From NCBI GenBank assembly GCA_964035545.1, contig OZ037769.1, forward strand, positions 15,096,633 to 15,160,632: a stretch of DNA of 64,000 bases. The letters run 5' to 3'. The DNA is from Bugula neritina (Eukaryota; Animalia; Bryozoa). Made by a program: the position numbers and the translations under genes. The notes under the pieces are model-generated. The model saw only the letters and a list, made by a program, of their open reading frames with translations. It made no database searches and was not told where the DNA came from. Shown piece after piece: positions 27,462 to 64,000 of the stretch (position 1 is the first letter of the stretch; each line of letters starts with the position of its first letter).

Positions 27462-27860
27462 TGGTTCATTTTATTTAAGTTAGTACATACTGAAGATCTC
27501 AAGTTTTTGCTAATGAACATGAGTTTTGGCCCGAAACTAAAAAAATATCAATAAATACACCTAAATAATCAAGGCTCTTTTTAATTTTCTTTGATTTCCT
27601 ATGCTTTTTTTCTAATTACAGCAACTTCTGACTGGGGATCGCCACGGTTAGTTTGTAACAATAGGCAATCCAAATGAAATGAATAAATAGGAAAAAACAT
27701 GAGAAATCATGCAAAATTAAGAAGAACCTTGATTTTTTAGGTGTATTTCTTGATGTCTCACTAATTTTAAGCAAAAAGCATTGTTCATTAGCAGCTAAAA
27801 TGTAAAAATGGCTAAAAACTGCAGATATCTAGTGTGTACTAAATTAAATAAAAGGATTCA
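27462..27860. repeat. Degenerate long inverted repeat (MITE-like, arms about 150 bp)
   Basis: e.g. AAATACACCTAAATAATCAAGG (about 27552) vs CCTTGATTTTTTAGGTGTATTT (about 27727); TTTATTTAAGTTAGTACA vs TGTACTAAATTAAATAAA. Confidence 0.7.
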
Positions 27861-32888: not shown

Positions 32889-33929
32889 TGCAGTTGGTTC
32901 TATTATTAGATTAGCATATCGATTATGACTTTTCGATTGCCACCCTGATACTATGAGTAAAATGTACAAGCATACGTGAAAGTATAGATATGATCATAAG
33001 TATAAAAATAGGTATAAGTATAAATATAAATATAGGTACAAGTATAAAACGAATGATTATATTATTAATAATATTAGTCAGTGATACCTATAACCGTAAT
33101 GGTTTTTAGACTTACAGTTATCATTAACATTAGCTGAGTAATATGATTAGTTAAAATAATGGTATTCATTATCATATCATAGTTATAAGTTATAACTCTA
33201 GTCTCTAAAGAGCAACAGCAAGTGTAATTGGGATATTCATATTAAATTTCATATTCACATAGTGAAATGTTTATGTTATGAACTAATTTATTCCTTCAAC
33301 ATTTAACTATAAATATGATTAACACTAACTTTGACCAGCAGTATTACTAAAAGAAACGTATTACAAATATAAGATAATAAAATTCTAGTAGTAGGACTAA
33401 TAGTATTACTAGGTCCAGTATTATTCTTGTTATCTTATTCATCATTCATGAGTTATCAAATTTAAAATTACTACTTATTAGCATCAGCATATAAAAAGTA
33501 AGATCATTAGGAATAATTATCATGAGGTATGATCTATGATTTGCCTTATCCATATATAGTTTAATATCAATATGATATATTATTATTGCTGATAGTCTAT
33601 GTTATAGTTAAATTTATACTTATCTTTACAGTTACCTATAGTAGCACTTATTAGTTATTTGTGGTAGCCAAACTAATGTTTAATATTAATAAATTAAACT
33701 GAGTATCATAAAAGTGTTACTAAGAATTTTAATTATAATCGTAATGGTGATCATATTACTTTATTATAATTAGTATATTTTATCATTAATGCTAAACTGA
33801 GTTAATGTATATACTTTGAGTTTTACTATTACTCATTATATTTACACTTATAGTAAAACTAAATATGTAAAAGTTATACTTATACTATTATTATTCGTAT
33901 TTCATTAGACTTACATCTAAGATCGCAGT

Positions 33930-33991
33930 CCTATTACTACTACCACTGATACTAGTACTACAACTAGTACTAGTACTGCTACTAGTACTAG

Positions 33992-34023
<32 letters not shown>

Positions 34024-34090
34024 ATAGTACTGTTACTACTACTACTACTACTAGTACTACTACTAGGTCTACTACTGTACCAGTACAACT
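33930..34090. repeat. Degenerate (CTA/GTA)n trinucleotide repeat (copy at about 62015-62170)
   Basis: Directly visible; source of the poly-Ser ORFs. Confidence 0.92.
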
Positions 34091-35902
34091 ACAAACTTTG
34101 AAAATAACTGCAAGAAAGGTATGACTTACTCTTTTTCTTAGTCTTACTGTGACTCTCAGTCGTAATGTAAAATAAAATTGTGAACTGTAAAGTTAAACCC
34201 AAGGCTGAAATTTATTTAATTAAATTTAGACAATCTGAATCATTGGCTCAATCCTTGAGTTTGACTATTACTATTATTATTAGTGCTACGATTGCGATTA
34301 TCATTGGCATTATGCCATTATGATTATCATTATGATTGTAATTGTGGTAATTCTAACATTAATTATAATCATAAATTAAAAGGTAATGATTAATGATAAT
34401 TATTTTCATTTTGTAATCATAATGATAATCATAATGATGTAAATTTTGATGTAAAACCAAAATACTAAAACTAAAAGTAAAAGTTATAAAATTAAATGAT
34501 AAAATATTATAATGATAATTATTATATTTATTATATTATTATTGAATATATTATTTCATTAGAAAATAGGTTGCAGCTTAGCATGATTAAAATTCAGTAA
34601 AAATTAGTTTACCAACAGCAAACATGCATGCGTCTTGTCAACATTCAATTCGTAGTGTCATAGCGAAGCCAGATTACTGGTAGTACGACTACTAGAACTA
34701 CTACTACTAGTGATGGATTACAGATCCTTGGCGATTTTAGCTGTGAGTGACCTTCACCTCACATTCTCGTCATGTGCGCGGCATTAGACTAAGTAGAGGG
34801 TATGAAGCACTGAGCTGGAAAAGAAAGAATATATTTTAATTATAGGTAATACTAATAGTAATATAATTTATGGTAATATATAGGTAATATTATTGAGTTC
34901 ATTGGTATGGAGTATAGACCTATCACTGATAGTATCAGTATCAACTACCACTTACGTACTACTTCAACTTATAACTTACCTTCAACTCAAACTCAAACTG
35001 AAACTGCTTGGAATCATTTGTCTTTGATCATATTGGCATTGTCATTGTGATTGTAATAACTATTAATATTTTTAGTTCAACATCAATGCCGAACATATTG
35101 TAATAACTAATAAGATAATCATAAGGTTGATATATTTTGCTAATACTAATACTAATACTAATAGTTATAGTAATAGTTATAGTAATTCAGTGTCACTCTC
35201 ACTCTGGTGGAGTGAGACTCAGACTTAGAGTTAGAGACAGAGTGAGTCCGAGTAAGTCTGAGTGTTGGTAATAGTAATAGTCATATAAATTTAAATTATA
35301 TTTACTTATTTCTAGCAATCACAATGGCAATAGTTGTAGTAACTTTCACTTACTCTTAAATCATTGAACCTGAACTAAAAGTAAAATTAAGCATTATGAT
35401 TATCATTATGATTATACCTATGATTTTATTATGTTTAAATTAAAAATCAATATCATGATAATATCATAGTGATAGACATATTATTGATAAATGATAATAT
35501 AAAAGTAATTTGATAAATTATACATTGATTTTGAATTAAGGTGATACTGATACTAGACCGGTACTGAAAGTGATAGTAATACTAATAGTAATAGTAATAG
35601 TCATATAAATTTAAGTTATATTTACTCATTACCGGCAATCACAATGGCAATAGTAACTTAAACTGTAACAGTAATGGTATGGGTATGTTTGAAATTGTCA
35701 CTATCAGTATTGCTATGAATCAAAATATAATGCTATCATACCAATAATTTAAAATAATATTACAAAGCTTCAGTAGCAACTTTTACTTGTACCAGTTTGG
35801 AATTTTGAATTATACATATTCTTAGTTAAAGTCTTCAAGTTTATTGTCAAAATGAACTTGAAATTAAAGACTTAGTAGTAAAAATTAAACTAAGACTGAC
35901 TG

Positions 35903-38465
35903 CACAGTTAGTTTAAGGTCATTACTTTCCAGATTCAAGCACTGCTTTATGTTATATATAAACGGTTTCCAGGGGATAGCTCGAACAGTTTTTGTCTCAC
36001 ATTAACAAATTTTACATGAAAAGATAGCTCTTGCATTCCTCTTTCATATACTTTTTTAATTTTTCAATAAAAAATTTTCTGAGAAAGTTGTTGCATAATA
36101 AGTAAAATTTTACACCCTCCATGTTCCACTGCTGTAGCACAGGGGATTCATTTTATAAAGTCTAAAAGTTAAACTTGACATTCCTTGATATGTTTTCTCT
36201 AATATACTTTCTTTGTTTTTTAAAATTCTGTTTATGCTCTTCACAATTTGGTAAAAACATACACCATTTTGCAAGTTTCACTGCAATTTTCTAAATTCTT
36301 CATATGGTGGTTCTAGCTACGCTCCTGTGACTAATTATAACATTCCTAGTACGTTTGCCGCTCTGCGCTATCACAATAACATATAGTACCCTCTCGCACA
36401 AATTGGCAATCTATTGGATTTCTGCCAATATAATGTTCCCTGTTTTACATTAGCGCTTAGCTGAATCATCTCACTATGTTACAATAATATATTGAAAATG
36501 CCTCAGCACAACATAATTCTTTGTTTGTTTGGCAGAGTTAATTTCAGCTAAATCACTTCACTTTGCAGTCTTGTCAGTAAAGGTCTGTCTATAGCCCAGC
36601 AGGTGTACTTTCAGTTTCTCTAATTCGCATATGATTATTTTAAGTACATTGTATTCTATAAGATCAATTTAAGGTTTAGTCCAGTGTTCAGTATCTAATT
36701 ATTATGCATGTATGTTGTCTTACTGTTGAACAAAAGTTAAAAAAAAACTTTACAATTATAGCCATATTTATTATACATGCGTAGGATTTGCATAAGTTGA
36801 CAAAAAAAATTGCAACAAAACAGGATTGAACCATGACCAACCAAATTCTCGCTGACGCCTCTAACCTCTGGACCACGCATTCATCGTTAATGAAACGCGC
36901 ACTATATGAGTAACTATCATTACATAAATATTTCGCGCGCAAATGGGTTATAATTATTAGGCTGATAGCAGTCAACTGTTGCAATAGTCTCAGGTTACTA
37001 GCAAAGCTAATGGTTTTGAACAAATAACCCAAAAGTTTAAAAAATAAGTAGCTTGCGTATTGCTAGCTACAAAAACAACTCTGAAATAGACTGGTAAAGC
37101 AAGCTCTTATTGTAGAGTTTGCAGATGTGCTCTAAAATAAAACTTAAACTGTATGCTATTACATAAGTATTTGTATGCGAGAGATAAATGGACATTACTG
37201 AGTTTCTGGAAAACAACATACTTGAAGTTAACTTTGACAATGGTGTGTTATTTTCATCATACACTAGCACAGATAGGGCCTATAGCATAAATCTCTAATC
37301 ATATGAATCTTTATGAAGCCCACAGCTCATGTAAGGGTGGCAAATGTAATTTGAAACTAAAAATTGTGTTGCTGCATTGTGTCTAAGGTATATTAGAGAG
37401 CAGAATTTGGTTTTACTAGCCTACCCCAACGGCATTCTACAATGCAGCTTATATGCTGGCAGTTGTAATAAGTACTGTCAATAGCAAGGTTACTATCACT
37501 GCTAGCTCTGTGCAGTATGTAACCTCTTGAATAATTGCGCCAATTTTAAACTCTTGGAAGTTGGCCAAGTTATCATATCGCAGCCAGCCACCGGAGACAA
37601 AGCATCAGAGCTATTCATATAATACTGATGCACTCGGTAGCAGAGTGGCTAATCTAATATAGTTCATAGTTCAACACCCTTTACTTTGGGAATACAGCCT
37701 CTTTTTTTAGGTTTACCTTACAAAGCATGAACATATCTAAACTGATATTCTGATAATTTAGAGGTACATTTTGAAAACTAGGTTAATTGCACTTGTTTGC
37801 ACAACAACAATAATAAAATAGATATTATGCAGTATAATAAAAACACACATAATACTATATAATATATTATAATGATAATAATATAATATTATAAGTACCA
37901 TTACTGCATTTTATAAATCACATGGTTGCCAAAAAAATGTATCACAAATTTTGTAATTATACATCAAAAATAGAACTATAGCTAGGCAGCAGGTTAGAAT
38001 AGAGTAAATTTTTAAAACATAAAATCATGATTTGACTATTGTTTTATTTAGGCCAACCAACCTAGGAATACAAGATTGGGTTTTAGCTGACAGTTTATAA
38101 CATTTAGCTTTTGAGCCAGCAGCACTGGCACTTGTGAAGTATAGGCAAAGTTAGTGAAGCGAGACTAACTATAGCACTCAAATACAAGGCATATTGAGAC
38201 GCGATAACAAGTCAGGAGCGTATAAATTGAAAAGAATGTGGAAGGGGGACTATGTTTTTCAACAAGCTATAACTTAAACATGAATTGGTTTTTGAAAAAA
38301 ATAAAAAAGTATATTGGAGAACATAAGTTTCTTTATCTTTTCATATTTTTTTTGTTCCTGTGACATTCAACCTGTTCGAGCTATCAGTGGAACATTGTTC
38401 ATATAGAACATAAAGCACCTGGCAAAGAGCCAGAAAATGAAAAGTGTGACCTTAAACTAACTGTG
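35903..38465. mobile_element. Complete non-autonomous CACAG-ended DNA transposon (CMC/EnSpm-like, 2-bp TSD TG)
   Basis: 19-bp TIR CACAGTTAGTTTAAGGTCA / TGACCTTAAACTAACTGTG plus imperfect subterminal inverted similarity; the empty site at about 63965-63981 (gactgacTGtaagtgac) shows a TG duplication; no transposase ORF. Confidence 0.92.
36802..36878 (-). other. tRNA-like Pol III unit (A box, B box, T-run) inside the DNA transposon; homologue at about 2555-2635
   Basis: Minus strand TGGTCCAGAGG ... GGTTCAATCC ... TTTTTTTT; no convincing cloverleaf. Confidence 0.5.
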
Positions 38466-39278
38466 TGTAAGTGACTAAGATTAAAAATAAGTAATTTTAA
38501 ATATCGATTTAGTATTTTTCTTACTCTTTGTCTTAAAATTGACTTTTATTTTGCACCTACTTCTGGTCAATGATTCTTTTTTCTATTTATATTACTATTG
38601 CTATTAGTATAATTGACTTAAATTTAATAATAGATATGATTATATCTTTATAAATGTGATATTTGATTTTATGAATAGTAATTCGAAAACTCTTTGGTAT
38701 TATTTATTTTTGATCATTGTAGTTATTATCATTATATTTGTATAATAATTATGATTATCAAATTCAATATCGATATTTGTATTATGGTATGGATATCTGC
38801 CTCCATCCCATGTTCTGTTTTGCAGTGCCTTTTTACATTCACGTCTAGCTTCACATTGCGATGGTCATACTGATAGCACTTGGGGACAGTGATGAGCATA
38901 ATGATTATCACTAATATTAGGATTATCGTTATTAGGATTTAGAATAATTTAATAAACAAGCAACTTAAAACAAATGTTTTTACTAATATACATAATAATT
39001 ACTAATATAAATATACTACTATGAATATTATAATTATTATACTTTACAATTCAAAGTAAGATAATCATAATACGAACTGGTAAAACTAAATATAAAGTAA
39101 ATGTAATAATACTAATAGTAGTTATCCATTCCCCTTTGGTTTCACATACTAATAATTGGAAACCTCTGTCCTAATATTATTTCTATTAATATTGCTCAAA
39201 GTTTGATCCCTATTTAATTTTATAGTTCACTCACCAGCTACATAATTTTATTAAAATACATGTGGTATTGGTTATAGT

Positions 39279-39629
39279 TTAGTAATTTGTTCAATTACTG
39301 AGCGTGAGTTATTTACTTGCGTATAGTTAGCTGGTTATTCTGTTATCAATTACTAAGGTAGCTGTCGAGTAATTATATTTATTATCCACAATAAAGCATA
39401 AACCAAACATCACATCAAATTATCCTATACAAGAGTCAACTACTAACACATGTTACTACTACAAGCCTCCGCTTACAACAACGTGATATAATGTTAATAA
39501 CCCGGGAAGTGTCACGTGACTCGGAAGCATATCTTCCGGAGCTGCTAATTGGTTGCTACATAAGAGTCTAAGTATTCCAAGAGTAGGGAGAGGGCGATTC
39601 CTGTATTTGTACTTGCACTACTCACTACA
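39279..39629 (-). repeat. 3' LTR, copy 1
   Basis: Direct repeat of 44190-44541; preceded on the minus strand by the polypurine tract GGGGGGGACGG. Confidence 0.96.
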
Positions 39630-39920
39630 CCGTCCCCCCCAGCAGAAAGCCCTACTTTCTGATAACACAATAAAAAAACATAATGAAAAACCATACAATA
39701 ATCCAAAAAGGAAAATATACATAAGTAAACCCACAAAGAGTAAGAAAAGAAATAGTTAAACACGACAACATTTACATTAGAAGACAACAGGGTGATCGAT
39801 CACACACATCTAGTCAGCTATTAAGAGAGAGGGTGCTTACCAGCACGCGGGCCAATGTCGGAGCGCTCGTCACATTCCAAACGAGCTATAGCTCAACGAA
39901 GGTGCCTACCCCAGGCATTC

Positions 39921-40973
39921 TCATTGGTTGGACTCTGCTTCTTGTAGCGACCGTGCTCTGTGTCGAGCCTGTCGGGCCCGTAGCCGCCTCTTCAGTCGCC
40001 CTACTGAGTCCTTCAACTGGTATAGACCTGTCGTCGTATCCAGCAAGTCAGGGGCAAGTTGTGTGAACTCGGCTTGCAGTCTTAGAAGCCGCTCTTCTAC
40101 GTTAGCCAGCTGGCTAGGCCTTGGTGGGGTTATAGGGGTCTCCGTTAGACGGGATATGGTTGTTTCTTCTACTTCTGGGGTGTTGCTAGGGTTGACGGGG
40201 GTAGGAGGTGGGCCCTGAACCATAGGGGACTTATGGCGGGCAGATAGTAACAGTACGTGAAACCCTGACGTTAGTGCGGCCAGGGTAATAGCCTTCCTGA
40301 TGACTGGCTTGATGGCATCCAGGTATAGGGGGAAACTGTCTTCATCAACAGTGTGGTTCTCTCCGGCGAAGCAGCTTAGCTTATGTACTGTCACGGGATA
40401 TGGGTAGACGTCGTGGAACCCGCAGGGACAGAAGTGGAGTAGGAAATGGGCGTCTACATGTAAACGCAGGGAGCGGTGCGACGGGCACTCCTCAAAGCAG
40501 ACCTGGCAGGTTTGGTGTGGTCCACTGGGTCCCCAGGCTTCTTCAATTCTCCTCTCTGTCGTGGGTGACACCCAACGGTGTCGTCGGCGGAGTACTACTG
40601 GTATGCCATTCTCCATTACAGGCTCTTCTTCCATAGACAGAGAGGTTGGCTGGTCCCGTGACCGGGAGGTGGTCACTCGAGTGTGATCTGAAAGAGTAGC
40701 AGTGTTAAAGATTATACACTGAGACACCGTCGGCGTGTACAGCCTGATCGGTACTCTGTTCAGTTACACTCGTGAGATTCAGGCTAATGAATAGTTGATG
40801 GAGAACACACTCGCTATGACAGATTATTTAAAATCAAAGTCGACGTGTATTCCCACCACTGTTTATCATTATCGAATCTCCAGCTAGCTAGTGTAGCTAA
40901 GCTGACTGATGCAGTCTAGTTATCGTACCAAAAACATAATTAACTCACCCTTCGATCCAGAATAGTAAGACAT
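39921..40973 (-). CDS. ORF3: two-exon gene (40973-40949 + 40687-39921, 263 aa) for a C2H2 + C2HC zinc-finger, Pro-linker, coiled-coil/basic-tail protein
   Basis: CCAAAATG start, AAGG|GTGAGT donor, CTCTTTCAG|AT acceptor, in-frame join MSYYSGSK-D-HTRV; CQVC-x12-H-x3-H and CPC-x12-H-x3-C; heptad leucines then RLKRRLRARQARHRAR. Confidence 0.8.
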
Positions 40974-40996
40974 TTTGGAATGAGAGTGGTAACTGA

Positions 40997-43255
40997 TTAC
41001 TGTTTACTGGCACGTCTACTCTCGACTGCATCAACATAGGAAAAGACCGGACAGCGTGGTTGTGAAACGTGACTAGGGCTTTTTACTTCCAGCGGATGAA
41101 TCTCGTGTGAGATTCCGCCGAGGCAAAAGTTGAGATTCTCGTGGTGATCACAACTCCCACGGCTCTTTGCCTGTTTTCCCATGCGAGGCCTCTCTAGACT
41201 TTTGTTACTGCCGCTTATACCGCGGTCACGTACACAGTCTCTGAGACACGCTGGAAGTTGCCTAGTGTGTGGTCCTGGTCCTATGTTGGTATCTCCTTGC
41301 GGAGCCCCTTCCACGGGGGATTTTTGCACTTCCGGACCGGTTTCTGGTTCCGGAAGTGGTGATGATGGCAGGCTTGACGTTGAGGGCGGTGAGCGCACTT
41401 TCAAGGACGGAAGTGGCCTTTCTCGCCTCGCCAAGTCTTCCTGACGTGTCATGGAGGTGTTTCCCGCCAGGTTGACAGTCTCCGCCTGCCGAGACCTTCT
41501 CGCACAATGCGTCTGCCGCCCCACTTCACCAGGGAGACGGCTATGCTTGTTGGTCTGGCAGACTTTGCACCGTCTCACTCTGCGTCGGATATCCCGTTCC
41601 ATGTTAGGCCAGTACCACCGGAGTTGTAGCTTGGTGACCACCCCTTGGACTCCTCCGTGAGTCTCCTCGTGGGTGTCTTGTATCAACTTCCGGCGGATGG
41701 CAACTGGGCAGACAACCCTCTTCCTGGCTGGCTGTCTGCTGTTGGCGGCCAAGGTCATGGTTAGCAGACCCTCTGGCCCGACCCGCAGAGAGCTCCAACG
41801 TTGACAGTACAGCCGTAACTCGGCGCATCCCTGTCGCCGTTGTGTACTACTGGGTCGTCGCCCCTCCTGTTTCGCTCGGTACACGTCGGCTACCACCCCA
41901 GGAAGGCATTCCTGGAGCTTCGGCAGCTCCCTAACGTTACCAGCCCATACAGGTTTGGCGCGGAGGCTCTGGGCAGCCTCCGGGGGCGTGTCAGCCCTCT
42001 GTTGGAGTGGCTGAGCAGGGGCGGTCCTCGCCGCCCGTGGTACCTCACGGCAGCCTGCTCTATTTAGGCGGGCTCCGTGGTCTGTGTGGCTTAACGCCTC
42101 ACTGTACCCATGTGGCAACCTAGCCATAGCCTGGCGCTTCCCGTTGCCTGTGCAGCCACGCGTCCCTGGAGGAGGGGAGGCGTGGGTTGGGACGGTCCTC
42201 CGCCCTCGAGACGGGCTCTGCTGAGGACCTTCCGTCGTAGCTCCCGACGACGGCCCAATGGCTTCCTCCTGGACAGGATGGAAGCGACCCAGCATGGATC
42301 TGGGTGGTAGGTCTACTGTCTCTGAGAAGGGGTTGACACACTGCACTGAGATCTCTCCTTGCCCCGTGAGCCGGCTAAAACTACGGGCAAGTTGGACTCT
42401 CGAGTGCGTACTTTCGACAACTCCCAGCTTAGAGGTTTGGCCACCGTCTACCTTGCAGCGGACGGTAGCCCGGGAGTGGCCTGGTATAGTACAGCTCCGT
42501 ACTACCTGCACTGCTCCCGCTAGAGGACGACCAAACTTATCGACACAAGCGAGCTCCTTGTCGCCCATGATTATCGCAGATTTACTGAAATCGATGCGAC
42601 AACCGTGTCGTTGTAAGAATGGCATCCCGAGGATAGCATCCTCGTTGAGCTGCCCGACGATAAACGTCTCTTGGATGGCCTGGTTACGGACGTAACCAGT
42701 TAGCTCAATAATGCCGTAGAAGGGGATGCACGACCCGTCTGCCAGGGTGCCATGATCCCCCTCATACGGTGCCAACCCGTCCTTGACCTTAGCGCTGAGG
42801 GTGTCAAAGAACTGACGGCTAAGGAGGTTGGTGGTGCAGCCGGAGTCCAGGAGGAAGTTGGCAGGCTTGCCGGCTAGCTTCCCTGGTAGGAAGTAGCTAC
42901 TTCCGTGCGGCTGCAATTGAGTGTGCCGTGGTTGCACCTCCCTCGCTGTGGGTCGAGGGGTCCACGGTTGGCGGCGACTATTGACCAGCTGCCGAGGTTG
43001 GGGCGGTACGCCTTGCGGCGCTTGTACCGTTTCCCTCGCAGGCTCTGTGGTCAACCGTCTGCCGGCTCCGTGTTGGTGCCAGAGTGGCGTAGAGGACCCA
43101 GGCGGCGAGTGGCTTGAGCCTACTTGCCGCGGGGGTCGCCACTTCACAGCATCTCCGCGCGGCGCCCAGCGGGGCGACAGACGCGCGGGCCTCCCTGGGT
43201 GATTCACAGACGGCCCGCAGGAGGTGGGAACATCTGCGGGCCGGGGTAGTTTAAC
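40997..43255 (-). CDS. pol: Internally deleted pol (aspartic protease + integrase HHCC zinc-binding domain; no RT, RNase H or DDE core), likely reached by -1 frameshift from gag
   Basis: FLLDSGCTTNLLS...AILGMPFL protease; H-EET-HGG...YWPNM...CKVC; no YxDD motif; integrase core reduced to a TVNLAG remnant. Confidence 0.85.
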   Translation of the reverse strand, partial: VKLPRPADVPTSCGPSVNHPGRPARLSPRWAPRGDAVKWRPPRQVGSSHSPPGSSTPLWHQHGAGRRLTTEPARETVQAPQGVPPQPRQLVNSRRQPWTPRPTAREVQPRHTQLQPHGSSYFLPGKLAGKPANFLLDSGCTTNLLSRQFFDTLSAKVKDGLAPYEGDHGTLADGSCIPFYGIIELTGYVRNQAIQETFIVGQLNEDAILGMPFLQRHGCRIDFSKSAIIMGDKELACVDKFGRPLAGAVQVVRSCTIPGHSRATVRCKVDGGQTSKLGVVESTHSRVQLARSFSRLTGQGEISVQCVNPFSETVDLPPRSMLGRFHPVQEEAIGPSSGATTEGPQQSPSRGRRTVPTHASPPPGTRGCTGNGKRQAMARLPHGYSEALSHTDHGARLNRAGCREVPRAARTAPAQPLQQRADTPPEAAQSLRAKPVWAGNVRELPKLQECLPGVVADVYRAKQEGRRPSSTQRRQGCAELRLYCQRWSSLRVGPEGLLTMTLAANSRQPARKRVVCPVAIRRKLIQDTHEETHGGVQGVVTKLQLRWYWPNMERDIRRRVRRCKVCQTNKHSRLPGEVGRQTHCARRSRQAETVNLAGNTSMTRQEDLARRERPLPSLKVRSPPSTSSLPSSPLPEPETGPEVQKSPVEGAPQGDTNIGPGPHTRQLPACLRDCVRDRGISGSNKSLERPRMGKQAKSRGSCDHHENLNFCLGGISHEIHPLEVKSPSHVSQPRCPVFSYVDAVESRRASKQ

Positions 43256-44154
43256 CCTGGTGGGAGTTGAGGGCAGTTTCTCTGGAAATGTCCTGGCCTT
43301 CCGCATTCCCAGCAGAAGTGGTGCCCCATGCCTGGTGATTGTACCTGCGGCCCGCAAGGCTCACGGGCAGTATCTACCTGGCTTGGGGAGGCTAGTGTGG
43401 TGACCAGTTTATCTAGCATGTCAGTCATCTGTGAGATTTTTGACGCTAGTGACATCTGGTTCACACTAGCCACCGCGGAGGGTTCCGCATTTAATTCGGT
43501 GTGAGCAGTAGAGTGCTCCGTGGTCACCTGGCGGGAGGCCACGCGGTTGCGGTGCATATGAGTCGCCAAGAGATAGGCTTCTCCCACCGCAAGTGCATCT
43601 TCGACTGTGGTGACTCCCCTCGCTTGGAGTTGATGGTGGAGCCCCAAGTCGTTGATGGACTGCACGAAGGCATCATAGGTATACCTCTCACGGTGTACCG
43701 GAGGCAGATCGCGGAATGCAATCTGCGCTAATGGGTACACCGTGGCAGCGTGCTCTTCTAGTGACGTGTGAGGATCACGCCGCATCCTCTGTAGACGGGC
43801 CCGCGCATCTATGGGAGAGATGCCAAAACGGGCCCGCAGGGAAGCAAAGATTCCGTCTATGTCAGGTCCAGCTCCGTACGGCTTAGCTTTGCCCGTCAGC
43901 GCCATCCTGAGCTTCAGCAACGCCACCCTTGGCGGGCATTCTGCAATCTCCATCACATCCTGGAATTCTTGGATGAACTGCTCCACTGCTTCTTCGCCGG
44001 TGAAGTTGGGTGCCTTCAGCCGGTATCTATCTTCACCATGCTCTCTAAGAATTCTCACTTCTTCATCGAACACCACTGGTTCCACAGGTATATCAACATT
44101 ATCTCTCTCACCTTCATTCAGTGGAATGGGTAGCTCCGTGCCGTCTTCTGCCAT
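43204..44154 (-). CDS. gag: Gag (capsid-like region + CCHC zinc knuckle)
   Basis: APNFTGEEAVEQFIQEF capsid-like start; CWECGRPGHFQRNC knuckle; first ATG (MAEDG) at 44154, just after the PBS. Confidence 0.9.
   Translation of the reverse strand: MAEDGTELPIPLNEGERDNVDIPVEPVVFDEEVRILREHGEDRYRLKAPNFTGEEAVEQFIQEFQDVMEIAECPPRVALLKLRMALTGKAKPYGAGPDIDGIFASLRARFGISPIDARARLQRMRRDPHTSLEEHAATVYPLAQIAFRDLPPVHRERYTYDAFVQSINDLGLHHQLQARGVTTVEDALAVGEAYLLATHMHRNRVASRQVTTEHSTAHTELNAEPSAVASVNQMSLASKISQMTDMLDKLVTTLASPSQVDTAREPCGPQVQSPGMGHHFCWECGRPGHFQRNCPQLPPGLNYPGPQMFPPPAGRL
43211..43255 (-). promoter_or_regulatory. Programmed -1 ribosomal frameshift signal (G_UUA_AAC + hairpin)
   Basis: Heptamer at 43255-43249 in the gag frame, 5-nt spacer, perfect 10-bp stem CGGCCCGCAG/CTGCGGGCCG with 13-nt loop; pol is in the -1 frame. 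Confidence 0.8.
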
Positions 44155-44170
44155 GACTGCTATACGCAAG

Positions 44171-44188
44171 ATCCCACCGCTGCCACCA
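44171..44188 (-). promoter_or_regulatory. Primer-binding site complementary to the tRNA-Leu 3' end
   Basis: TGGTGGCAGCGGTGGGAT one base inside the 5' LTR; complement of ...ATCCCACCGCTGCCA-CCA, the 3' end I recall for metazoan tRNA-Leu(AAG/TAG). Confidence 0.85.
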
Positions 44189-44189
44189 C

Positions 44190-44541
44190 TGTAGTAATTT
44201 GTTCAATTACTGAGCGTGAGTTATTTACTTGCGTATAGTTAGCTGGTTATTCTGTTATCAATTACTAAGGTAGCTGTCGAGTAATTATATTTATTATCCA
44301 CAATAAAGCATAAACCAAACATCACATCAAATTATCCTATACAAGAGTCAACTACTAACACATGTTACTACTACAAGCCTCCGCTTACAACAACGTGATA
44401 TAATGTTAATAACCCGGGAAGTGTCACGTGACTCGGAAGCATATCTTCTGGAGCTGCTAATTGGTTGCTACATAAGAGTCTAAGTATTCCAAGAGTAGGG
44501 AGAGGGCGATTCCTGTATTTGTACTTGCACTACTCACTACA
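44190..44541 (-). repeat. 5' LTR, copy 1
   Basis: 352 bp, TGTAGT...ACTACA termini, followed by the PBS on the minus strand. Confidence 0.96.
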
Positions 44542-46467
44542 ATAGTACTAGTGAAACTTGAAGTTGAATAGCATGCTTATTACTCACTGCTCTTTGCTTA
44601 CATTATTAGGGTTACTCTTTAGTCTTAGAGGTACCCTAACATAAACTTGAAAGCTGGAGGTAGTACTAGTCTAGTGCTGTGTTAATCCTACACCGTTGAC
44701 TTATCAACACTGTGACTATAATTATGACTCCTAAGTCAAAGTCATTTTCATATAGTAGTAATCACTATGACAGACTGAAAGTCAGGAAGACTAAATATAA
44801 TGGTAAAGTGTGTAAGAATAAATCATACTCAATCAATTACTTTTAGTTTTATTACCAGTGTTGGGTCAACTTTCAGAATAAAGAATAAATATAATTATAA
44901 AGATAAATGGATAAAAATTCCAATCATGGTTTAATGTGCCTATTTTAAGCTGTTAATTTAATTACTATAATATAAGTGCTCAAAATACAACTTTTGTTTT
45001 TCATAATTATGTTTTAATTTAATACAGATACCATAGTATCATATACAGTAGAATCAGTTGTATCTTATTTAATAATGAAGTAACTTATTGGAGCTTTCAC
45101 AATTATTAATTATTTACTTGTTAGTCTTTGAACTGGGACAATGTTTGAAACTTGAAGTAGAATGAAGTTTGATTTCAGTTACCGCAATGGTATCTGCAGT
45201 CACAATAGGAATACGCATATAACTATGTTTATATTTGTGAAAAATATATAGTCAAAAGTAGATAAGGTAATAGTAATTATAATTGGTTTCACTTTTAATA
45301 TATTCCTATAAACTGGAAAATAGACAGAAGCATTTAATCATGAAAGTAAACCTAGTGGAAGTAAATCAATTCACTAAGTATAGTAAAATATTTACTATTC
45401 AGTAAGTTTATTTACTTTAGTTAATTGTACTTGATTATTTCTGTCGGTTTTTCAGTTGATTTTTCTACCTTTTGCTATAGCATATCAAACTACCACAAAG
45501 TCATGCTTCCGTATTACAATTATAAACATAGTGTTACTGTGTAATGTTATAGTAATGTAATAGTAATATTTGGATCATTGTAAGTATTTCTGTTGTTGTA
45601 CTGATTGATAAATATTTTTTAGCTTGCATGGATATTTGCAACGATCAAGATGTCATTTGAACCTGGACTGGAATAAAGATGGCAAATCGAGAAGCTAGGT
45701 ACAATTATTCTGCAGAAAGAAACTTGGTAAGCAAAAATAAGCTGCAGCATTAAGCCGTAAGCAATATGACGATGAACTTTGCTTGATTTTGATTGACCTT
45801 AAAATATCTGGTCACCTTTCACCAACGTGGTCCTGCGCGGGTGGCGGGTGACCTTAAAATGTCTGTTGCACGTAAAATAAATTTTGTGACAGTCAAAAGT
45901 ATGCTGATCTTTTTCGTATTTCAGTGCATCGGTGTCTTAGCTTAAGAGCTGAACCCAACAATTATGATCTAAAGCTGTTTTTACTAGAAAGTGATTTTAC
46001 TGTCTTTCTGATTATTCTTGGTTTTTCAGCTTGATGAATTGAATAAATGGATTTGATTTCGGGTATTATGTAATGGATGAAAGAAATTTTTCTTAAATTT
46101 GTACTGAGCAATTTTTGCTATTGCTATGATGTTTAGTGATAAAATTGCACCCTTAATAACCCTGAAAATTATCATTACTAGCATTTGTTTATGTTCATTT
46201 TTAGGAAATTAAAATGAAGACACAACTCACCGATGCTATCTCACTGTGCCTGCATGCAGTTTATCTAAAAAGGTACTCCTATTAGCTGGCTCTTGCCCAA
46301 TACCTGGTTGTCTCTGTAACTATTTCTTGCTCGCAGATGAGTTTTTTGAACTTGACATTTTATTGATTTTGAAAGTTATAGTGAGCTTTGAAGTTGCTAG
46401 CATCGTTTTTAAAGACTTGCTGCAGTTTTTATCAACATTTTTTAAGTCAATGGTGTTAGTTTGGAAG

Positions 46468-55711: not shown

Positions 55712-56946
55712 TGCAGTTGGTTCTATTATTAGATTAGCATATCGATTATGACTTTTCGATTGCCACCCTGATACTATGAGTAAAATGTACAAGCATACGT
55801 GAAAGTATAGATATGATCATAAGTATAAAAATAGGTATAAGTATAAATATAAATATAGGTACAAGTATAAAACGAATGATTATATTATTAATAATATTAG
55901 TCAGTGATACCTATAACCGTAATGGTTTTTAGACTTACAGTTATCATTAACATTAGCTGAGTAATATGATTAGTTAAAATAATGGTATTCATTATTATAT
56001 CATAGTTATAAGTTATAACTCTAGTCTCTAAAGAGCAACAGCAAGTGTAATTGGGATATTCATATTAAATTTCATATTCACATAGTGAAATGTTTATGTT
56101 ATGAACTAATTTATTCCTTCAACATTTAACTATAAATATGATTAACACTAACTTTGACCAGCAGTATTACTAAAAGAAGCGCATTACAAATATAAGATAA
56201 TAAAATTCTAGTAGTAGGACTAATAGTATTACTAGGTCCAGTATTATTCTTGTTATCTTATTCATCATTCATGAGTTATCAAATTTAAAATTACTACTTA
56301 TTAGTGTAGTAATTTGTGCAATTACTGAGCGTGAGTTATTTACTTGCGTATAGTTAGCTGGTTATTCTGTTATCAATTACTAGGGTAGCTGTCGAGTAAT
56401 TATATTTATTATCCACAATAAAGCATAAACCAAACATCACATCAAATTATCCTATACAAGAGTCAACTACTAACACATGTTACTACTACAAGCCTCCGCT
56501 TACAACAACGTGATATAATCTTAATAACCCGGGAAGTGTCACGTGACTCGGAAGCATATCTTCCGGAGCTGCTAATTGGTTGCTACATAAGAGTCTAAGT
56601 ATTCCAAGAATAGGGAGAGGGCGATTCCTGTATTTGTACTTGCACTACTCACCACACCGTCCCCCCCAGCAGAAAGCCCTACTTTCTGATAACACAATAA
56701 AAAACATAATGAAAAACCATACAATAATCCAAAAAGGAAAATATACATAAGTACACCCACAAAGAGTAAGAAAAGAAATAGTTAAACACGACAACGTTTA
56801 CATTAGAAGACAACAGGGTGATCGATCACACACATCTAGTCAGCTATTAAGAGAGAGGGTGCTTACCAGCACGCGGGCCAATGTCGGAGCGCTCGTCACA
56901 TCCTAAACGAGCTATAGCTCAACGAAGGTGCCTACCCCAGGCATTC

Positions 56947-57994
56947 TCATTGGTTGGACTCTGCTTCTTGTAGCGACCGTGCTCTGTGTCGAGCCTGTCG
57001 GGCCCGTAGCCGCCTCTTCAGTCGTCCCACTGAGTCCTTCAACTGGTATAGACCTGTCGTCGTATCCAGCAAGTCAGGGGCAAGTTGTGTGAACTCGGCT
57101 TGCAGTCTTAGAAGCCGCTCTTCTACGTTAGCCAGCTGGCTAGGTCTTGGTGGGGTTATAGGGGTCTCCGTTATACGGGATATGGTTGTTTTTTCTACTT
57201 CTGGGGTGTTGCTAGGGTTGACGGGAGTAGGAGGTGGGCCCTGAACCATAGGGGACTTATGGCGGGCAGATAGTAACAGTACGTGAAACCCTGACGTTAG
57301 TGCGGCCAGGGTAATAGCCTTCCTGATGACTGGCTTGATGGCATCCAGGTATAGGGGGAAACTGTCTTCATCAACAGTGTGGTTCTCTCCGGCGAAGCAG
57401 CTTAGCTTATGTACTGTCACGGGATACGGGTAGACGTCGTGGAACCCGCAGGGACAGAAGTGGAGTAGGAAATGGGCATCCACATGTAAACGCAAGGAGC
57501 GGTGTGACGGGCACTCCTCAAAGCAGACCTGGCAGGTTCGGTGTGGTCCACTGGGTCCCCAGGCTTCTTCAATTTTCCTCTCTGTCGTGGGTGACACCCA
57601 ACGGTGTCGTCGGCGGAGTACTACTGGTATGCCATTCTCCATTACAGGCTCTTCTTCCATAGACAGAGAGGTTGGCTGGTCCCGTGACCGGGAGGTGGTC
57701 ACTCGAGTGTGATCTGAAAGAGTAGCAGTGTTAAAGATTATACACTGAGACACCGTCGGCGTGTACAGCCTGACCGGTACTCTGTTCAGTTACACTCGTG
57801 AGATTCAGGCTAATGAATAGTTGATGGAGAACACACTCGCTATGACAGATTATTTAAAATCAAAGTCGACGTGTATTCCCACCACTGTTTATCATTATCG
57901 AATCTCCAGCTAGCTAGTGTAGCTGACTGATGCAGTCTAGTTATCGTACCAAAAACATAATTAACTCACCCTTCGATCCAGAATAGTAAGACAT
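56947..57994 (-). CDS. ORF3 zinc-finger/coiled-coil gene, copy 2 (exons 57994-57970 + 57713-56947)
   Basis: Same ATG, donor and acceptor as copy 1; a 5-bp indel falls in the intron; 4 aa differences. Confidence 0.8.
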
Positions 57995-58017
57995 TTTGGA
58001 ATGAAAGTGGTATCTGA

Positions 58018-60276
58018 TTACTGTTTACTGGCACGTCTACTCTCGACTGCATCAACATAGGAAAAGACCGGACAGCGTGGTTGTGAAACGTGACTAGGGC
58101 TTTTCACTTCCAGCGGATGAATCTCGCGTGAGATTCCGCCGAGGCAAAAGTTGAGATTCTCGTGGTGATCACAACTCCCACGGCTCTTTGCCTGTTTTCC
58201 CATGCGAGGCCTCTCTAGACTTTTGTTACTGCCGCTTATACCGCGGTCACGTACACAGTCTCTGAGACACGCTGGAAGTTGCCTAGTGTGTGGTGCTGGT
58301 CCTATGTTGGCATCTCCTTGCGGAGCCCCTCCCACGGGGGGTTTTTGCACTTCCGGACCTGTTTCTGGTTCCGGAAGTGGTGATGATGGCAGGCTTGACG
58401 TTGGGGGCAGTGGGCGCACTTTCAAGGACGGAAGTGGCCTTTCTCGCCTCGCCAAGTCTTCCTGACGTGTCATGGAGGTGTTTCCGGCCAGGTTGACAGT
58501 CTCCGCCTGCTGAGACCTTCTCGCACAATGCGTCTGCCGCCCCGCTTCACCAGGGAGACGGCTATGCTTGTTGGTCTGGCAGACTTTGCACCGTCTCACT
58601 CTGCGTCGGATATCCCGTTCCATGTTAGGCCAGTACCACCGGAGTTGTAACTTGGTGACCACCCCTTGGACTCCTCCGTGAGTCTCCTCGTGAGTGTCTT
58701 GTATCAACTTCCGGCGGATGGCAACTGGGCAGACAACCCTCTTCCTGGTGGGCTGTCTGCTGTTGGTGGCCAAGGTCATGGTTAGCAGACCATCTGGCCC
58801 GACCCGCAGAGAGCTCCAACGTTGACAGTACAGCCGTAACTCGGCGCATCCCTGTCGCCGTTGTGTACTACTGGGTCGTCGCCCCTCCTGTTTCGCTCGG
58901 TACACGTCGGCTACCACCCCAGGAAGGCATTCCTGGAGCTTCGGCAGCTCCCTAACGTTACCAGCCCATACAGGTTTGGCGCGGAGGCTCTGGGCAGCCT
59001 CCGGGGGCGTGTCAGCCCTCTGTTGAAGTGGCTGAGCAGGGGCGGTCCTCGCCGCCCGTGGTACCTCACGGCAGCCTGCTCTATTTAGGCGGGCTCCGTG
59101 GTTTGTGTGGCTGAACGCCTCACTGTACCCATGTGGCAACCTAGCCATAGCCTGGCGCTTCCCGTTGCCTGTGCAGCCACGCGTCCCTGAAGGAGGGGAG
59201 GCGTGGGTTGGGACGGTCTTCCGCCCTCGAGACGGGCTCTGCTGAGGACCTTCCGTCGTAGCTCCCGACGACGGCCCAATGGCTTCCTCCTGGACAGGAT
59301 GGAAGCGACCCAGCATGGATCTGGGTGGTAGGTCTACTGTCTCTGAGGAGGGGTTGACACACTGCACTGAGATCTCTCCTTGCCCCGTGAGCCGGCTAAA
59401 ACTACGGGCAAGTTGGACTCTCGAGTGCGTACTTTCGACAACTCCCAACTTAGAGGTTTGGCCACCGTCTACCTTGCAGCGGACGGTAGCCCGGGAGTGG
59501 CCTGGCATAGTACAGCTCCGTACTACCTGCACTGCTCCCGCTAGAGGACGACCAAACTTATCGACACAAGCGAGCTCCTCGTCGCCCATGATTATCGCAG
59601 ATTTACTGAAATCGATGCGACAACCGTGTCGTTGTAAGAATGGCATCCCGAGGATAGCATCCTCGTTGAGCTGCCCGACGATAAACGTCTCTTGGATGGC
59701 CTGGTTACGGACGTAACCAGTTAGCTCAATAATGCCGTAGAAGGGAATGCACGACCCGTCTGCCAAGGTGCCATGATCCCCCTCGTACGGTGCCAACCTG
59801 TCCTTGACCTTAGCGCTGAGGGTGTCAAAGAACTGACGGCTAAGGAGGTTGGTGGTGCAGCCGGAGTCCAGAAGGAAGTTGGCAGGCTTGCCGGCTAACT
59901 TCCCTGGCAGGAAGTAGCTACTTCCGTGCGGCTGCAATTGAGTGTGCCGTGGTTGCACCTCCCTCGCTGTGGGTCGAGGGGTCCACGGTTGGCGGCGACT
60001 ATTGACCAGCTGCCGAGGTTGGGGCGGTACGCCTTGCGGCGCCTGTACCGTTTCCCTCGCAGGCTCTGTGGTCAACCGTCTGCCGGTTCCGTGTTGGTGC
60101 CGGAGTGGCGTAGAGGACCCAGGTGGCGAGTGGCTGAAGCCTACTTGCCGCGGGGGTCGCCACTTCACAGCGTCTCCGCGCGGCGCCCAGCGGGGCGACA
60201 GACGCGCGGGCCTCCCTGGGTGATTTACAGACGGCCCGCAGGAGGTGGGAACATCTGCGGGCCGGGGTAGTTTAAC
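58018..60276 (-). CDS. pol: Internally deleted pol (protease + integrase HHCC only), copy 2
   Basis: Same length and open frame as copy 1; frameshift heptamer 60276-60270 and hairpin 60264-60232 conserved. Confidence 0.85.
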   Translation of the reverse strand, partial: VKLPRPADVPTSCGPSVNHPGRPARLSPRWAPRGDAVKWRPPRQVGFSHSPPGSSTPLRHQHGTGRRLTTEPARETVQAPQGVPPQPRQLVNSRRQPWTPRPTAREVQPRHTQLQPHGSSYFLPGKLAGKPANFLLDSGCTTNLLSRQFFDTLSAKVKDRLAPYEGDHGTLADGSCIPFYGIIELTGYVRNQAIQETFIVGQLNEDAILGMPFLQRHGCRIDFSKSAIIMGDEELACVDKFGRPLAGAVQVVRSCTMPGHSRATVRCKVDGGQTSKLGVVESTHSRVQLARSFSRLTGQGEISVQCVNPSSETVDLPPRSMLGRFHPVQEEAIGPSSGATTEGPQQSPSRGRKTVPTHASPPSGTRGCTGNGKRQAMARLPHGYSEAFSHTNHGARLNRAGCREVPRAARTAPAQPLQQRADTPPEAAQSLRAKPVWAGNVRELPKLQECLPGVVADVYRAKQEGRRPSSTQRRQGCAELRLYCQRWSSLRVGPDGLLTMTLATNSRQPTRKRVVCPVAIRRKLIQDTHEETHGGVQGVVTKLQLRWYWPNMERDIRRRVRRCKVCQTNKHSRLPGEAGRQTHCARRSQQAETVNLAGNTSMTRQEDLARRERPLPSLKVRPLPPTSSLPSSPLPEPETGPEVQKPPVGGAPQGDANIGPAPHTRQLPACLRDCVRDRGISGSNKSLERPRMGKQAKSRGSCDHHENLNFCLGGISREIHPLEVKSPSHVSQPRCPVFSYVDAVESRRASKQ

Positions 60277-61175
60277 CCTGGTGGGAGTTGAGGGCAGTTT
60301 CTCTGGAAATGTCCTGGCCTTCCGCATTCCCAGCAGAAGTGGTGCCCCATGCCTGGTGATTGTACCTGCGGCCCGCAAGGCTCACGGGCAGTATCTACCT
60401 GGCTTGGGGAGGCTAATGTGGTGACCAGTTTATCTAGCATGTCAGTCATCTGTGAGATTTTTGACTCTAGTGACATCTGGTTCACACTAGCCACCGCGGA
60501 GGGTTCCGCATTTAATTCGGTGTGAGCAGTAGAGTGCTCCGTGGCCACCTGGCGGGAGGCCACGCGGTTGCGGTGCATATGAGTCGCCAAGAGATAGGCT
60601 TCTCCCACCGCAAGTGCATCTTCGACTGTGGTGACTCCCCTCGCTTGGAGTTGATGGTGGAGTCCCAAGTCGTTGATGGACTGCACGAAGGCATCATAGG
60701 TATACCTCTCACGGTGTACCGGAGGCAGATCGCGGAATGCAATCTGCGCTAGTGGGTACACCGTGGCAGCGTGCTCTTCTAGTGACGTGTGAGGATCACG
60801 CCGCATCCTCTGTAGACGGGCCCGCGCATCTATGGGAGAGATGCCAAAACGGGCCCGCAGGGAAGCAAAGATTCCGTCTATGTCAGGTCCAGCTCCGTAC
60901 GGCTTAGCTTTGCCCGTCAGCGCCATCCTGAGCTTTAGCAACGCCACCCTTGGCGGCCATTCTGCAATCTCCATCACATCCTGGAATTCTTGGATGAACT
61001 GCTCCACTGCTTCTTCGCCAGTGAAGTTGGGCGCCTTCAGCCGATATCTATTTTCACCATGCTCTCTAAGAATTCTCACTTCTTCATCTAACACCACTGG
61101 TTCCACAGGTATATCAACATTATCTCTCTCACCTTCATTCAGTGGAATGGGTAGCTCCGTGCCGTCTTCTGCCAT
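60225..61175 (-). CDS. gag: Gag, copy 2
   Basis: 5 aa differences from copy 1; CCHC knuckle intact. Confidence 0.9.
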   Translation of the reverse strand: MAEDGTELPIPLNEGERDNVDIPVEPVVLDEEVRILREHGENRYRLKAPNFTGEEAVEQFIQEFQDVMEIAEWPPRVALLKLRMALTGKAKPYGAGPDIDGIFASLRARFGISPIDARARLQRMRRDPHTSLEEHAATVYPLAQIAFRDLPPVHRERYTYDAFVQSINDLGLHHQLQARGVTTVEDALAVGEAYLLATHMHRNRVASRQVATEHSTAHTELNAEPSAVASVNQMSLESKISQMTDMLDKLVTTLASPSQVDTAREPCGPQVQSPGMGHHFCWECGRPGHFQRNCPQLPPGLNYPGPQMFPPPAGRL

Positions 61176-64000
61176 GACTGCTATACGCAAGATCCCACCG
61201 CTGCCACCACTGTAGTAATTTGTGCAATTACTGAGCGTGAGTTATTTACTTGCGTATAGTTAGCTGGTTATTCTGTTATCAATTACTAGGGTAGCTGTCG
61301 AGTAATTATATTTATTATCCACAATAAAGCATAAACCAAACATCACATCAAATTATCCTATACAAGAGTCAACTACTAACACATGTTACTACTACAAGCC
61401 TCCGCTTACAACAACGTGATATAATCTTAATAACCCGGGAAGTGTCACGTGACTCGGAAGCATATCTTCCGGAGCTGCTAATTGGTTGCTACATAAGAGT
61501 CTAAGTATTCCAAGAATAGGGAGAGGGCGATTCCTGTATTTGTACTTGCACTACTCACCACAATTAGCATCAGCATATAAAAAGTAAGATCATTAGGAAT
61601 AATTATCATGAGGTATGATCTATGATTTGCATTATCCATATATAGTTTAATATCAATATGATATATTATTATTGCTGATAGTCTATGTTATAGTTAAATT
61701 TATACTTATCTTTACAGTTACCTATAGTAGCACTTATTAGTTATTTGTGGTAGCCAAACTAATGTTTAATACTAATAAATTAAACTGAGTATCATAAAAG
61801 TGTTACTAAGAATTTTAATTATAATCGTAATGGTGATCATATTACTTTATTATAATTATTATATTTTATCATTAATGCTAAACTGAGTTAATGTATATAC
61901 TTTGAGTTTTACTATTACTCATTATATTTACACTTATAGTAAAACTAAATATGTAAAAGTTATACTTATACTATTATTATTCGTATTTCATTAGACTTAC
62001 ATCTAAGATCGCAGTCCTATTACTACTACCACTGATACTAGTACTACAACTAGTACTAGTACTGCTACTAGTACTAGTACTACTACTACTACTACTACTA
62101 CTACTAATAGTACTGTTACTACTACTACTACTAGTACTACTACTAGGTCTACTACTGTACCAGTACAACTACAAACTTTGAAAATAACTGCAAGAAAGGT
62201 ATGACTTACTCTTTTTCTTAGTCTTACTGTGACTCTCAGTCGTAATGTAAAATAAAATTGTGAACTGTAAAGTTAAACCCAAGGCTGAAATTTATTTAAT
62301 TAAATTTAGACAATCTGAATCATTGGCTCAATCCTTGAGTTTGACTATTACTATTATTATTAGTGTTACGATTGTGATTATCATTGGCATTATGCCATTA
62401 TGATTATCATTATGATTGTAATTGTGGTAATTCTAACATTAATTATAATCATAAATTAAAAGGTAATGATTAATGATAAGTATTTTCATTTTGTAATCAT
62501 AATGATAATCATAATGATGTAAATTTTGATGTAAAACCAAAATACTAAAACTAAAAGTAAAAGTTATAAAATTAAATGATAAAATATTATAATGATAATT
62601 ATTATATTATTATTGAATATATTATTTCATTAGAAAATAGGTTGCAGCTTAGCATGATTAAAATTCAGTAAAAATTAGTTTACCAACAGCAAACATGCAT
62701 GCGTCTTGTCAACATTCAATTCGTAGTGTCATAGCGAAGCCAGATTACTGGTAGTACGACTACTAGAACTACTACTACTAGTGATGGATTACAGATCCTT
62801 GGCGATTTTAGCTGTGAGTGACCTTCACCTCACATTATCGTCATGTGCGCGGCATTAGACTAAGTAGAGGGTATGAAGCACTGAGCTGGAAAAGAAAGAA
62901 TATATTTTAATTATAGGTAATACTAATAGTAATATAATTTATGGTAATATATAGGTAATATTATTGAGTTCATTGGTATGGAGTATAGACCTATCACTGA
63001 TAGTATCAGTATCAACTACCACTTACGTACTACTTCAACTTATAACTTACCTTCAACTCAAACTGAAACTGCTTGGAATCATTTGTCTTTGATCATATTG
63101 GCATTGTGATTGTCATTGTGATTGTAATAACTATTAATATTTTTAGTTCAACATCAATGCCGAACATATTGTAATAACTAATAAGATAATCATAAGGTTG
63201 ATATATTTTGCTAATACTGATACTAATACTAATAGTTATAGTAATAGTTATAGTAATTCAGTGTCACTCTCACTCTGGTGGAGTGAGACTCAGACTTAGA
63301 GTTAGAGACAGAGTGAGTCCGAGTAAGTCTGAGTGTTGGTAATAGTAATAGTCATATAAATTTAAATTATATTTACTTATTTCTAGCAATCACAATGGCA
63401 ATAGTTATAGTAACTTTCACTTACTCTTAAATCATTGAACCTGAACTAAAAGTAAAATTAAGCATTATGATTATCATTATGATTATACCTATGATTTTAT
63501 TATGTTTAAATTAAAAATCAATATCATGATAATATCATAGTGATAGACATATTATTGATAAATGATAATATAAAAGTAATTTGATAAATTATACATTGAT
63601 TTTGAATTAAGGTGATACTGATACTAGACCGGTACTGAAAGTGATAGTAATACTAATGGTAATAGTAATAGTCATATAAATTTAAGTTATATTTACTCAT
63701 TACCGGCAATCACAATGGCAATAGTAACTTAAACTGTAACAGTAATGGTATGGGTATGTTTGAAATTGTCACTATCAGTATTGCTATGAATCAAAATATA
63801 ATGCTATCATACCAATAATTTAAAATAATATTACAAAGCTTCAGTAGCAACTTTTACTTGTACCAGTTTGGAATTTTGAATTATACATATTCTTAGTTGA
63901 AGTCTACAAGTTTATTGTCAAAATGAACTTGAAATTAAAGACTTAGTAGTAAAAATTAAACTAAGACTGACTGTAAGTGACTAAGATTAAAAATAAGTAA

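Follow-up and report, generated by a model that had tools for sequence, protein, structure and literature searches.

A zinc-finger/coiled-coil accessory gene under selection behind the truncated pol of a non-autonomous Gypsy-type element in Bugula neritina

The regulation of animal LTR retrotransposons is assumed to be left to host factors. The literature considered has one worked-out self-encoded regulator, the CERV protein of Cer1, a Gypsy element of C. elegans. Encoded by five exons, CERV is 517 aa long and has H, M and G domains and a C4-type loop; in the part of the source available, no homologues are reported outside nematodes and an export function is demonstrated (PMC10309623). As far as the accessible text of two further sources goes, env of the Drosophila errantivirus gypsy is a third ORF whose subgenomic RNA is made by splicing out gag-pol (PMC4276936, PMC13524379). 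The non-env ORF3s of bdelloid LTR elements and the additional ORFs of plant elements lie past pol family-wide and are typically spliced, and those in the available texts are env-like, GDSL, DEDDy, transmembrane or coiled-coil only (PMC5408684, PMC7264820). The non-autonomous family TelKA2n keeps its ORF3, according to the same bdelloid text (PMC5408684). A spliced non-env third ORF is a known kind of gene, represented by CERV, the bdelloid ORF3s and the plant ORFs.

The window analysed here, a 64,000-nt stretch of the Bugula neritina genome, contains two copies of a Gypsy-type element whose accessory gene belongs to a second, apparently unrelated family. It resembles CERV in that a product can share the Gag N-terminus by splicing, a form seen in one homologue (P0014) of the 120 listed. 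Going by the description of CERV, the protein is set apart by a C2H2 plus C2HC finger pair and a C-terminal coil, and the gene by two alternative first exons and an RT-less element. It is a third ORF in the env slot, as in errantiviruses, but, as the original prediction held, the product is not Env: it has no signal peptide, no transmembrane anchor and no fusogen family match. The maximum 19-residue hydropathy of exon 2 is only 1.43 and thus no transmembrane segment is called, and both alternative first exons are short and polar. The finger pair also separates the family from the bdelloid and plant extra ORFs, in whose main texts, as available, the word 'zinc' occurs 0 times (PMC5408684, PMC7264820); it likewise occurs 0 times in the available text of PMC13524379 and PMC8220671.

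The gene is real and under selection, it occurs in two joined forms in data from outside the window, and its module lies behind integrase clade-wide. The product is likely a nuclear, coiled-coil-dimerised DNA-binding regulator of the element's own transcription, a reading held at a little short of even odds. Searches of the openly accessible literature returned no description of this zinc-finger/coiled-coil family, of its switch between fused and spliced forms, of its dual donors or of its retention in an RT-less element; the repeat collections Repbase, Dfam and GyDB may list such ORFs, as may supplements and journals under subscription.

A reduced element in two young copies

The element is 5.26 kb long, lies on the reverse strand and reads LTR, PBS, gag, protease/H2C2 frame, accessory gene, PPT, LTR. 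In copy 1 the 5' LTR (44190..44541, 352 nt, TGTAGT...ACTACA) is 99.7% identical to the 3' LTR (39279..39629), and both are enclosed by a 5-bp target-site duplication, ATAGT (39274-39278 and 44542-44546). A contig joint in a public sequencing run, X1, bridges the empty site of this copy with five shared letters. The primer-binding site (44171..44188), which we take to be of the tRNA-Leu type, recurs in the same or similar form in related loci, and the polypurine tract is at 39630..39640. The gag frame (43204..44154) encodes 316 aa with a CCHC knuckle. It is overlapped by a truncated pol of 787 codons (40997..43360) in which Pfam recognizes a protease and the integrase H2C2 finger. Copy 2 (56305..61562, same strand) is 98.2% identical, has a 5-bp duplication, ATTAG, and carries its accessory gene at 57994-56947; the corresponding empty site lies at 33477-33481, inside a duplicated segment. 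Near-identical LTRs and 5-bp target duplications mark both copies as young insertions.

The duplicated segment pairs 27840-35902 with 50670-63973 at 98-99% identity and is split by element copy 2; a second duplication pairs 1674-3916 with 35903-38105 at 86%. These could be real duplications or else two haplotypes.

TG...CA LTRs, PBS, PPT and short target duplications are those of a Ty3/Gypsy LTR element. A Pfam search of the pol frame found no RT, RNase H or rve (integrase core), so that neither window copy has the enzymes of an autonomous element. Since the copies lack these domains and relatives have them in PR-RT-RH order (P0127, 70% identical across the protease region) or RH-IN order (P0339), membership in Ty3/Gypsy rests on kinship. 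P0122 and P0188 are reduced in the same way, and together with the RT and RNase H of P0127 this makes the family non-autonomous; judged by their domain content, the RT-bearing relatives are its likely helpers. A recurrent non-autonomous layout, with the integrase H2C2 finger kept and no RT or rve match, is seen in P0121, P0122, P0188, P0150, P0168 and P0173, and those of the six that were scanned also have the protease.

Elsewhere in the window, a nucleotidyltransferase (DUF294/NTP_transf_2) and TPR-repeat gene at 17949-20785 (-) and 4345-5890 (-) is broken by stops or frame changes, with a partial paralogue at 86% identity. A reverse-transcriptase fragment at 15098-16548 (-) (RVT_1, E 2e-36), presumably of non-LTR type, is spread over two frames, and we take a short ORF at 31402-31767 (+) to be similar to a non-LTR element fragment.

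Two donors and one acceptor

The pol stop ends at 40997 and the accessory ATG follows at 40973-40971. It opens a 25-nt mini-exon (40949..40973) with a phase-1 donor, G^GTGAGT. A 261-nt GT-AG intron (40688..40948), predicted to be structured, ends in CTCTTTCAG and leads into the 767-nt exon 2 (39921..40687), which encodes the zinc-finger domain, a Pro/Thr linker, a heptad coiled coil and a basic tail. The two exons sum to 792 nt, that is 263 codons and a stop, and read-through into the unspliced intron is halted by a stop after 18 codons. In copy 2 the boundaries are 57994/57970/57713/56947. Direct reading of the letters agrees with the original prediction in its ATG at 40973, its 25-nt exon, its 261-nt intron and its 263-aa product.

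Exon 2 differs between the copies by nine synonymous and four replacement changes, the same counts as first proposed, and zero Cys or His residues are altered (pN/pS 0.15, binomial p 0.0012). Gag (pN/pS 0.23) and the pol remnant (0.46) also stay below 1 but are under weaker constraint than this exon. The intron carries one substitution per 256 aligned nt as against 3-5% at synonymous sites, and the sole indel within the gene, of 5 nt, falls in the intron, again as predicted. Variants of exon 2 in X1 comprise five replacement and four synonymous changes (n = 9, among 40 of 202 rows). Small indels listed for this run are wholly intronic in 3/5 cases and coding in none; among 15 of its 19 joints, three of the 15 deletions are wholly intronic and three remove exon-2 sequence. 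These exon-2 deletions, together with the balance of replacement and synonymous variants, indicate that broken copies exist.

A second first exon is supplied by gag. Its 43-nt coding leader (44112..44154, phase 1) ends at AAG^GTGAGA, the intron beginning at 44111. Only two donors of the form [AG]G^GTRAG are found on the sense strand of the 5.26-kb element; both are phase 1 and fit the exon-2 acceptor. In the homologue P0014, one among the 120 listed, residues 1-14 match gag residues 1-14 (12/14 identical) and are followed by the first exon-2 codon; in the window, the phase-1 donor G^GTGAGA comes directly after gag codon 14. The exon-2 start is reached by 32 of the homologues listed, of which 31 have [LF]-[SL] before D/G and the other is P0014. 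The [LF]-[SL] residues are compatible with a YAG acceptor. In P0122 and P0002 the mini-exon donor marks the end or the start of off-frame reads.

The mini-exon junction, 40949 to 40687, had been proposed as a check of the gene model. Among 15 of the 19 joints in X1, one joins 40687 to 40949 and omits exactly 40688-40948, with CT..AC ends; the probability of meeting both intron ends by chance is about 3e-6. Its depth is 843, with most other joints at about 100, and it comes from one contig whose short side is 29 letters at a likeness of 85, weak by the tool's own mark. X1 consists of contigs from a run of unrecorded kind; the search of public sequencing runs returned this one run and no RNA run. 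X1 bridges the empty site and contains 59-kb records, and is therefore read as DNA, probably. If so, the joint would represent copies left without the intron when spliced RNA was reverse-transcribed. The joined forms in X1 and P0014 both agree with a spliced subgenomic RNA, as far as sequence can indicate.

Among 17 distant gag starts none has a strong phase-1 leader donor, so that spliced expression is supported for the window element's own family only. No close-family locus was found in the metagenome, viral or prokaryote contigs scanned.

The mini-exon lies within a predicted long RNA hairpin (40895..41055, reverse strand; folding z -4.15) that pairs both its ATG and its donor, with unpaired probabilities of 0.07 and 0.19. 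The outer arms are 41033-41024 and 40916-40907, and a candidate acceptor AG lies inside at 41027-41026. The window overlapping the hairpin is the lowest of 103 fold windows (z -6.3), and the intron itself is predicted to fold at z -4.07. Windows in gag fold equally strongly (z -5 to -6). Strong folds of this range at 43791-43602 and 43091-42952 (-), in gag and directly past the gag stop, are candidate packaging or frameshift signals on the folding model. A three-exon route through the candidate acceptor at 41026 finds no matching junction among 15 of the 19 X1 joints. An internal promoter at the Inr-like TCAGTT (40996) is not supported, because copy 2 differs there and a shorter RNA barely frees the donor (unpaired probability from 0.19 to 0.29).

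The protein family and its place behind integrase

The fingers, which belong to a domain encoded at about 40628-40221, are C60-x2-C63-x12-H76-x3-H80 and C86-x-C88-x12-H101-x3-C105 in exon-2 numbering. These are the originally predicted spacings, found in 93-100% of 44 aligned homologues; the first is a classical C2H2 finger with conserved ligands. There are 134 close homologues, with 128 matches at the 50% level. Across 44 sequences of 16-30% identity, four Cys and one His are invariant, and the conserved core runs W-x-[ST]-x2-T, C-x2-C-x12-H-x3-H, C-x-C-G, H-x3..8-C/H, [YF]-x-V-D. Identity by region is 0.48 in the linker, 0.79 in the fingers and 0.86 in the coil. Of 35 members picked by hand, 26 have a heptad tail that scores above shuffled sequence.

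No Pfam family matches exon 2, and several homologues match zf-C2H2 below the curated cut-off. Profiles match the fingers of SALL3, HIC2 and ZBTB proteins (E 4e-6 to 5e-4) with the first finger only. The 136-aa domain is modelled at pLDDT 95 and pTM 0.88 and the full protein at pLDDT 62. With either model Foldseek returns nothing from PDB and BFVD at E<=0.001, and a wide VIA structure search gives nothing at Z>=5. Aligned in tandem by VIA, both fingers reach Z 4.0 with Kaiso (rmsd 3.5, 59 aligned) and Z 3.6 with SALL4 (rmsd 2.9, 51 aligned), values in the range of common arrangements. ESM Atlas gives unnamed clusters and weak zf-C2H2 leads, with recognition below threshold. The likeness to Kaiso/ZBTB33, SALL3/4 and CTCF lies in the first finger by profile and in a weakly aligned two-finger geometry. 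In contrast to these proteins the second finger has C-x-C spacing, and the pair is preceded by a W-x-[ST]-x2-T helix and followed by a [YF]-x-V-D strand and helices; the 136-aa domain as a whole has no clear match among solved structures.

A pol-based scan yielded 61 loci, 27 of them with at least 1400 nt past the match (19 closer, 8 distant or partial). A profile built from proteins alone matched 13 loci (E<=8e-7) and a second round added L012, the only new locus, the second-round E-values of the 13 being circular as these loci were in the profile. Of the 19 closer loci 14 carry the module, always on the sense strand, and these represent seven families; the profile matches 0/8 of the distant or partial loci. 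Two loci (L032, L034) match weakly, and three (L023, L030, L031) have only a diverged Cys/His pattern. In 13 of the 14 carriers the module lies behind integrase; in L006 it lies before the PBS, and that locus is read as a permuted contig. Seven pairwise comparisons within the distant families all give pN/pS of 0.10-0.51, with p<0.05 in five.

The carriers are scattered across an RT tree of 39 rows, a tree of the collected rows that holds no reference elements. Gypsy clades named in the available parts of the literature are Mag A/B/C, CsRN1, MolGy and PolGy (PMC8556966, PMC8220671). In L002, L003, L007, L009, L010, L017 and P0339 the integrase GPY/F region and the fingers are connected by 268-566 residues of stop-free frame; the window element and the L005 family have the module separate from pol. 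The accessory family is widespread in one Gypsy clade, alternates between Pol-fused and separately spliced forms and is retained in the window element despite loss of RT and integrase. In L007 (about 5580-5620) and L008 (about 2350-2390), a branch-point-like and polypyrimidine-CAG sequence precedes an acidic, Met-initiated segment in a pol-continuous frame; judged by its letters, it is possibly a splice entry in the pol-fused lineage.

Of the regulatory protein first proposed, what stands is a real, selected, spliced, non-Env accessory gene; the proposal missed the gag-ATG form, the non-autonomy of the element and the lineages with the module in the integrase frame, and with these lineages a possible integration-stage role.

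Possible roles of the product

The order of tandem fingers, flexible linker and terminal coil with a basic tail is that of a dimeric DNA-binding regulator. This reading is ranked first, with a probability approaching one half. C2H2 fingers can also bind RNA and protein. In an LTR-driven RNA, splicing would link the gag-leader donor (44112/44111) with 40687, as happens for env of gypsy and CERV of Cer1, and by arithmetic the product would have 269 aa; the 263-aa mini-exon form would require re-initiation past a stop, or an internal start. The predicted hairpin would mask the mini-exon donor and leave most genomic RNA unspliced, and in this proposal that is why the intron gets copied. RT and integrase would be supplied in trans by RT-bearing relatives such as P0127, and the zinc-finger protein would activate, or hold open, the element's own transcription.

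The foamy-virus protein Tas is a self-activator. Self-activation is a possible likeness here, but no word of at least 9 nt in the LTR recurs in the stretch upstream of exon 2, and three 8-mers are shared against seven expected, so no Tas-like internal-promoter circuit is visible. Within the LTR a 10-bp palindrome (44432-44423) that has an E-box at its centre is a candidate site for a dimeric factor on the strength of its letters. It is possible, if on balance unlikely, that a marine-invertebrate Gypsy clade has its own dimeric zinc-finger regulator that was ancestrally a Pol tail, became subject to hairpin-set alternative splicing in the window family and indispensable after loss of RT and integrase, and was captured by bryozoan hosts; the retrotransposon would then have a regulatory circuit of the kind seen in complex retroviruses.

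It is unlikely that the protein instead acts like CERV or HIV Rev, binding the structured retained intron and exporting, protecting or selecting genomic RNA. Production from a spliced RNA with an N-terminus that can be common with Gag, as in CERV (PMC10309623, in its available part), would fit such a role, as would the predicted structure and near-invariance of the intron and the Arg-rich tail. However, the gag windows fold as strongly as the intron, four loose matches to nuclear export signal patterns include none that is convincing, homologues lie in the pol frame in lineages with no evident intron, and the fold leads indicate DNA-binding arrays.

In chromoviruses a chromodomain is located at the integrase C-terminus. 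The module has a like position behind integrase in the in-frame lineages, the domain itself being different, and a role as a chromatin tether, carried in the particle to direct or aid integration, is slightly less likely again than the RNA-factor role; the window family would then give the tether as a separate protein to the helper integrase. Where integrase and fingers share one stop-free frame, as in six loci and P0339, synthesis of Pol would include the module, and an integration-stage role fits these cases equally well. The non-autonomous family moreover retains the integrase H2C2 finger. Against such a tether, several in-frame cases have the acidic, Met-initiated segment ahead of the fingers, with the branch-point/acceptor-like sequence before that Met in L007 and L008, which together suggest separate expression, and the window and L005 families encode the module apart from pol.

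That the gene is real but translated without splicing from a Met in exon 2, the joined forms being chance deletions, is very improbable. A Met that 82% of 38 aligned homologues have at position 18 of exon 2, and an L005 family with its own ATG and no acceptor, would suit such a start, but two independent joins fall exactly at GT and AG sites, in phase, and the 13 codons before the Met are conserved at 0.74, against 0.73 in the helical region past the fingers. Passive carriage of a host zinc-finger fragment with a leftover intron, for which the host-annotated relatives in Watersipora subatra and Bugula neritina might speak, is scarcely credible and largely refuted by purifying selection inside element families, by the joining of the module through splicing to the element's own gag leader and, in keeping with the original prediction, by its profile-detected recurrence at the same position in seven diverged families across the RT tree.

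These host genes are a possible case of domestication. A profile search with the distant alignment gave three proteins. Named members of the family are XP_067940964.1 of Watersipora subatra, with two domain copies, and KAF6040922.1 and KAF6040923.1 of Bugula neritina; all named relatives are bryozoan. The domain is also carried by proteins annotated to bryozoan hosts and by one unnamed Logan protein (P0217/P0328, P0267, P0336, P0347, P0262). Two of these carry it twice, and P0267 and P0336 have an extra N-terminal motif in common.
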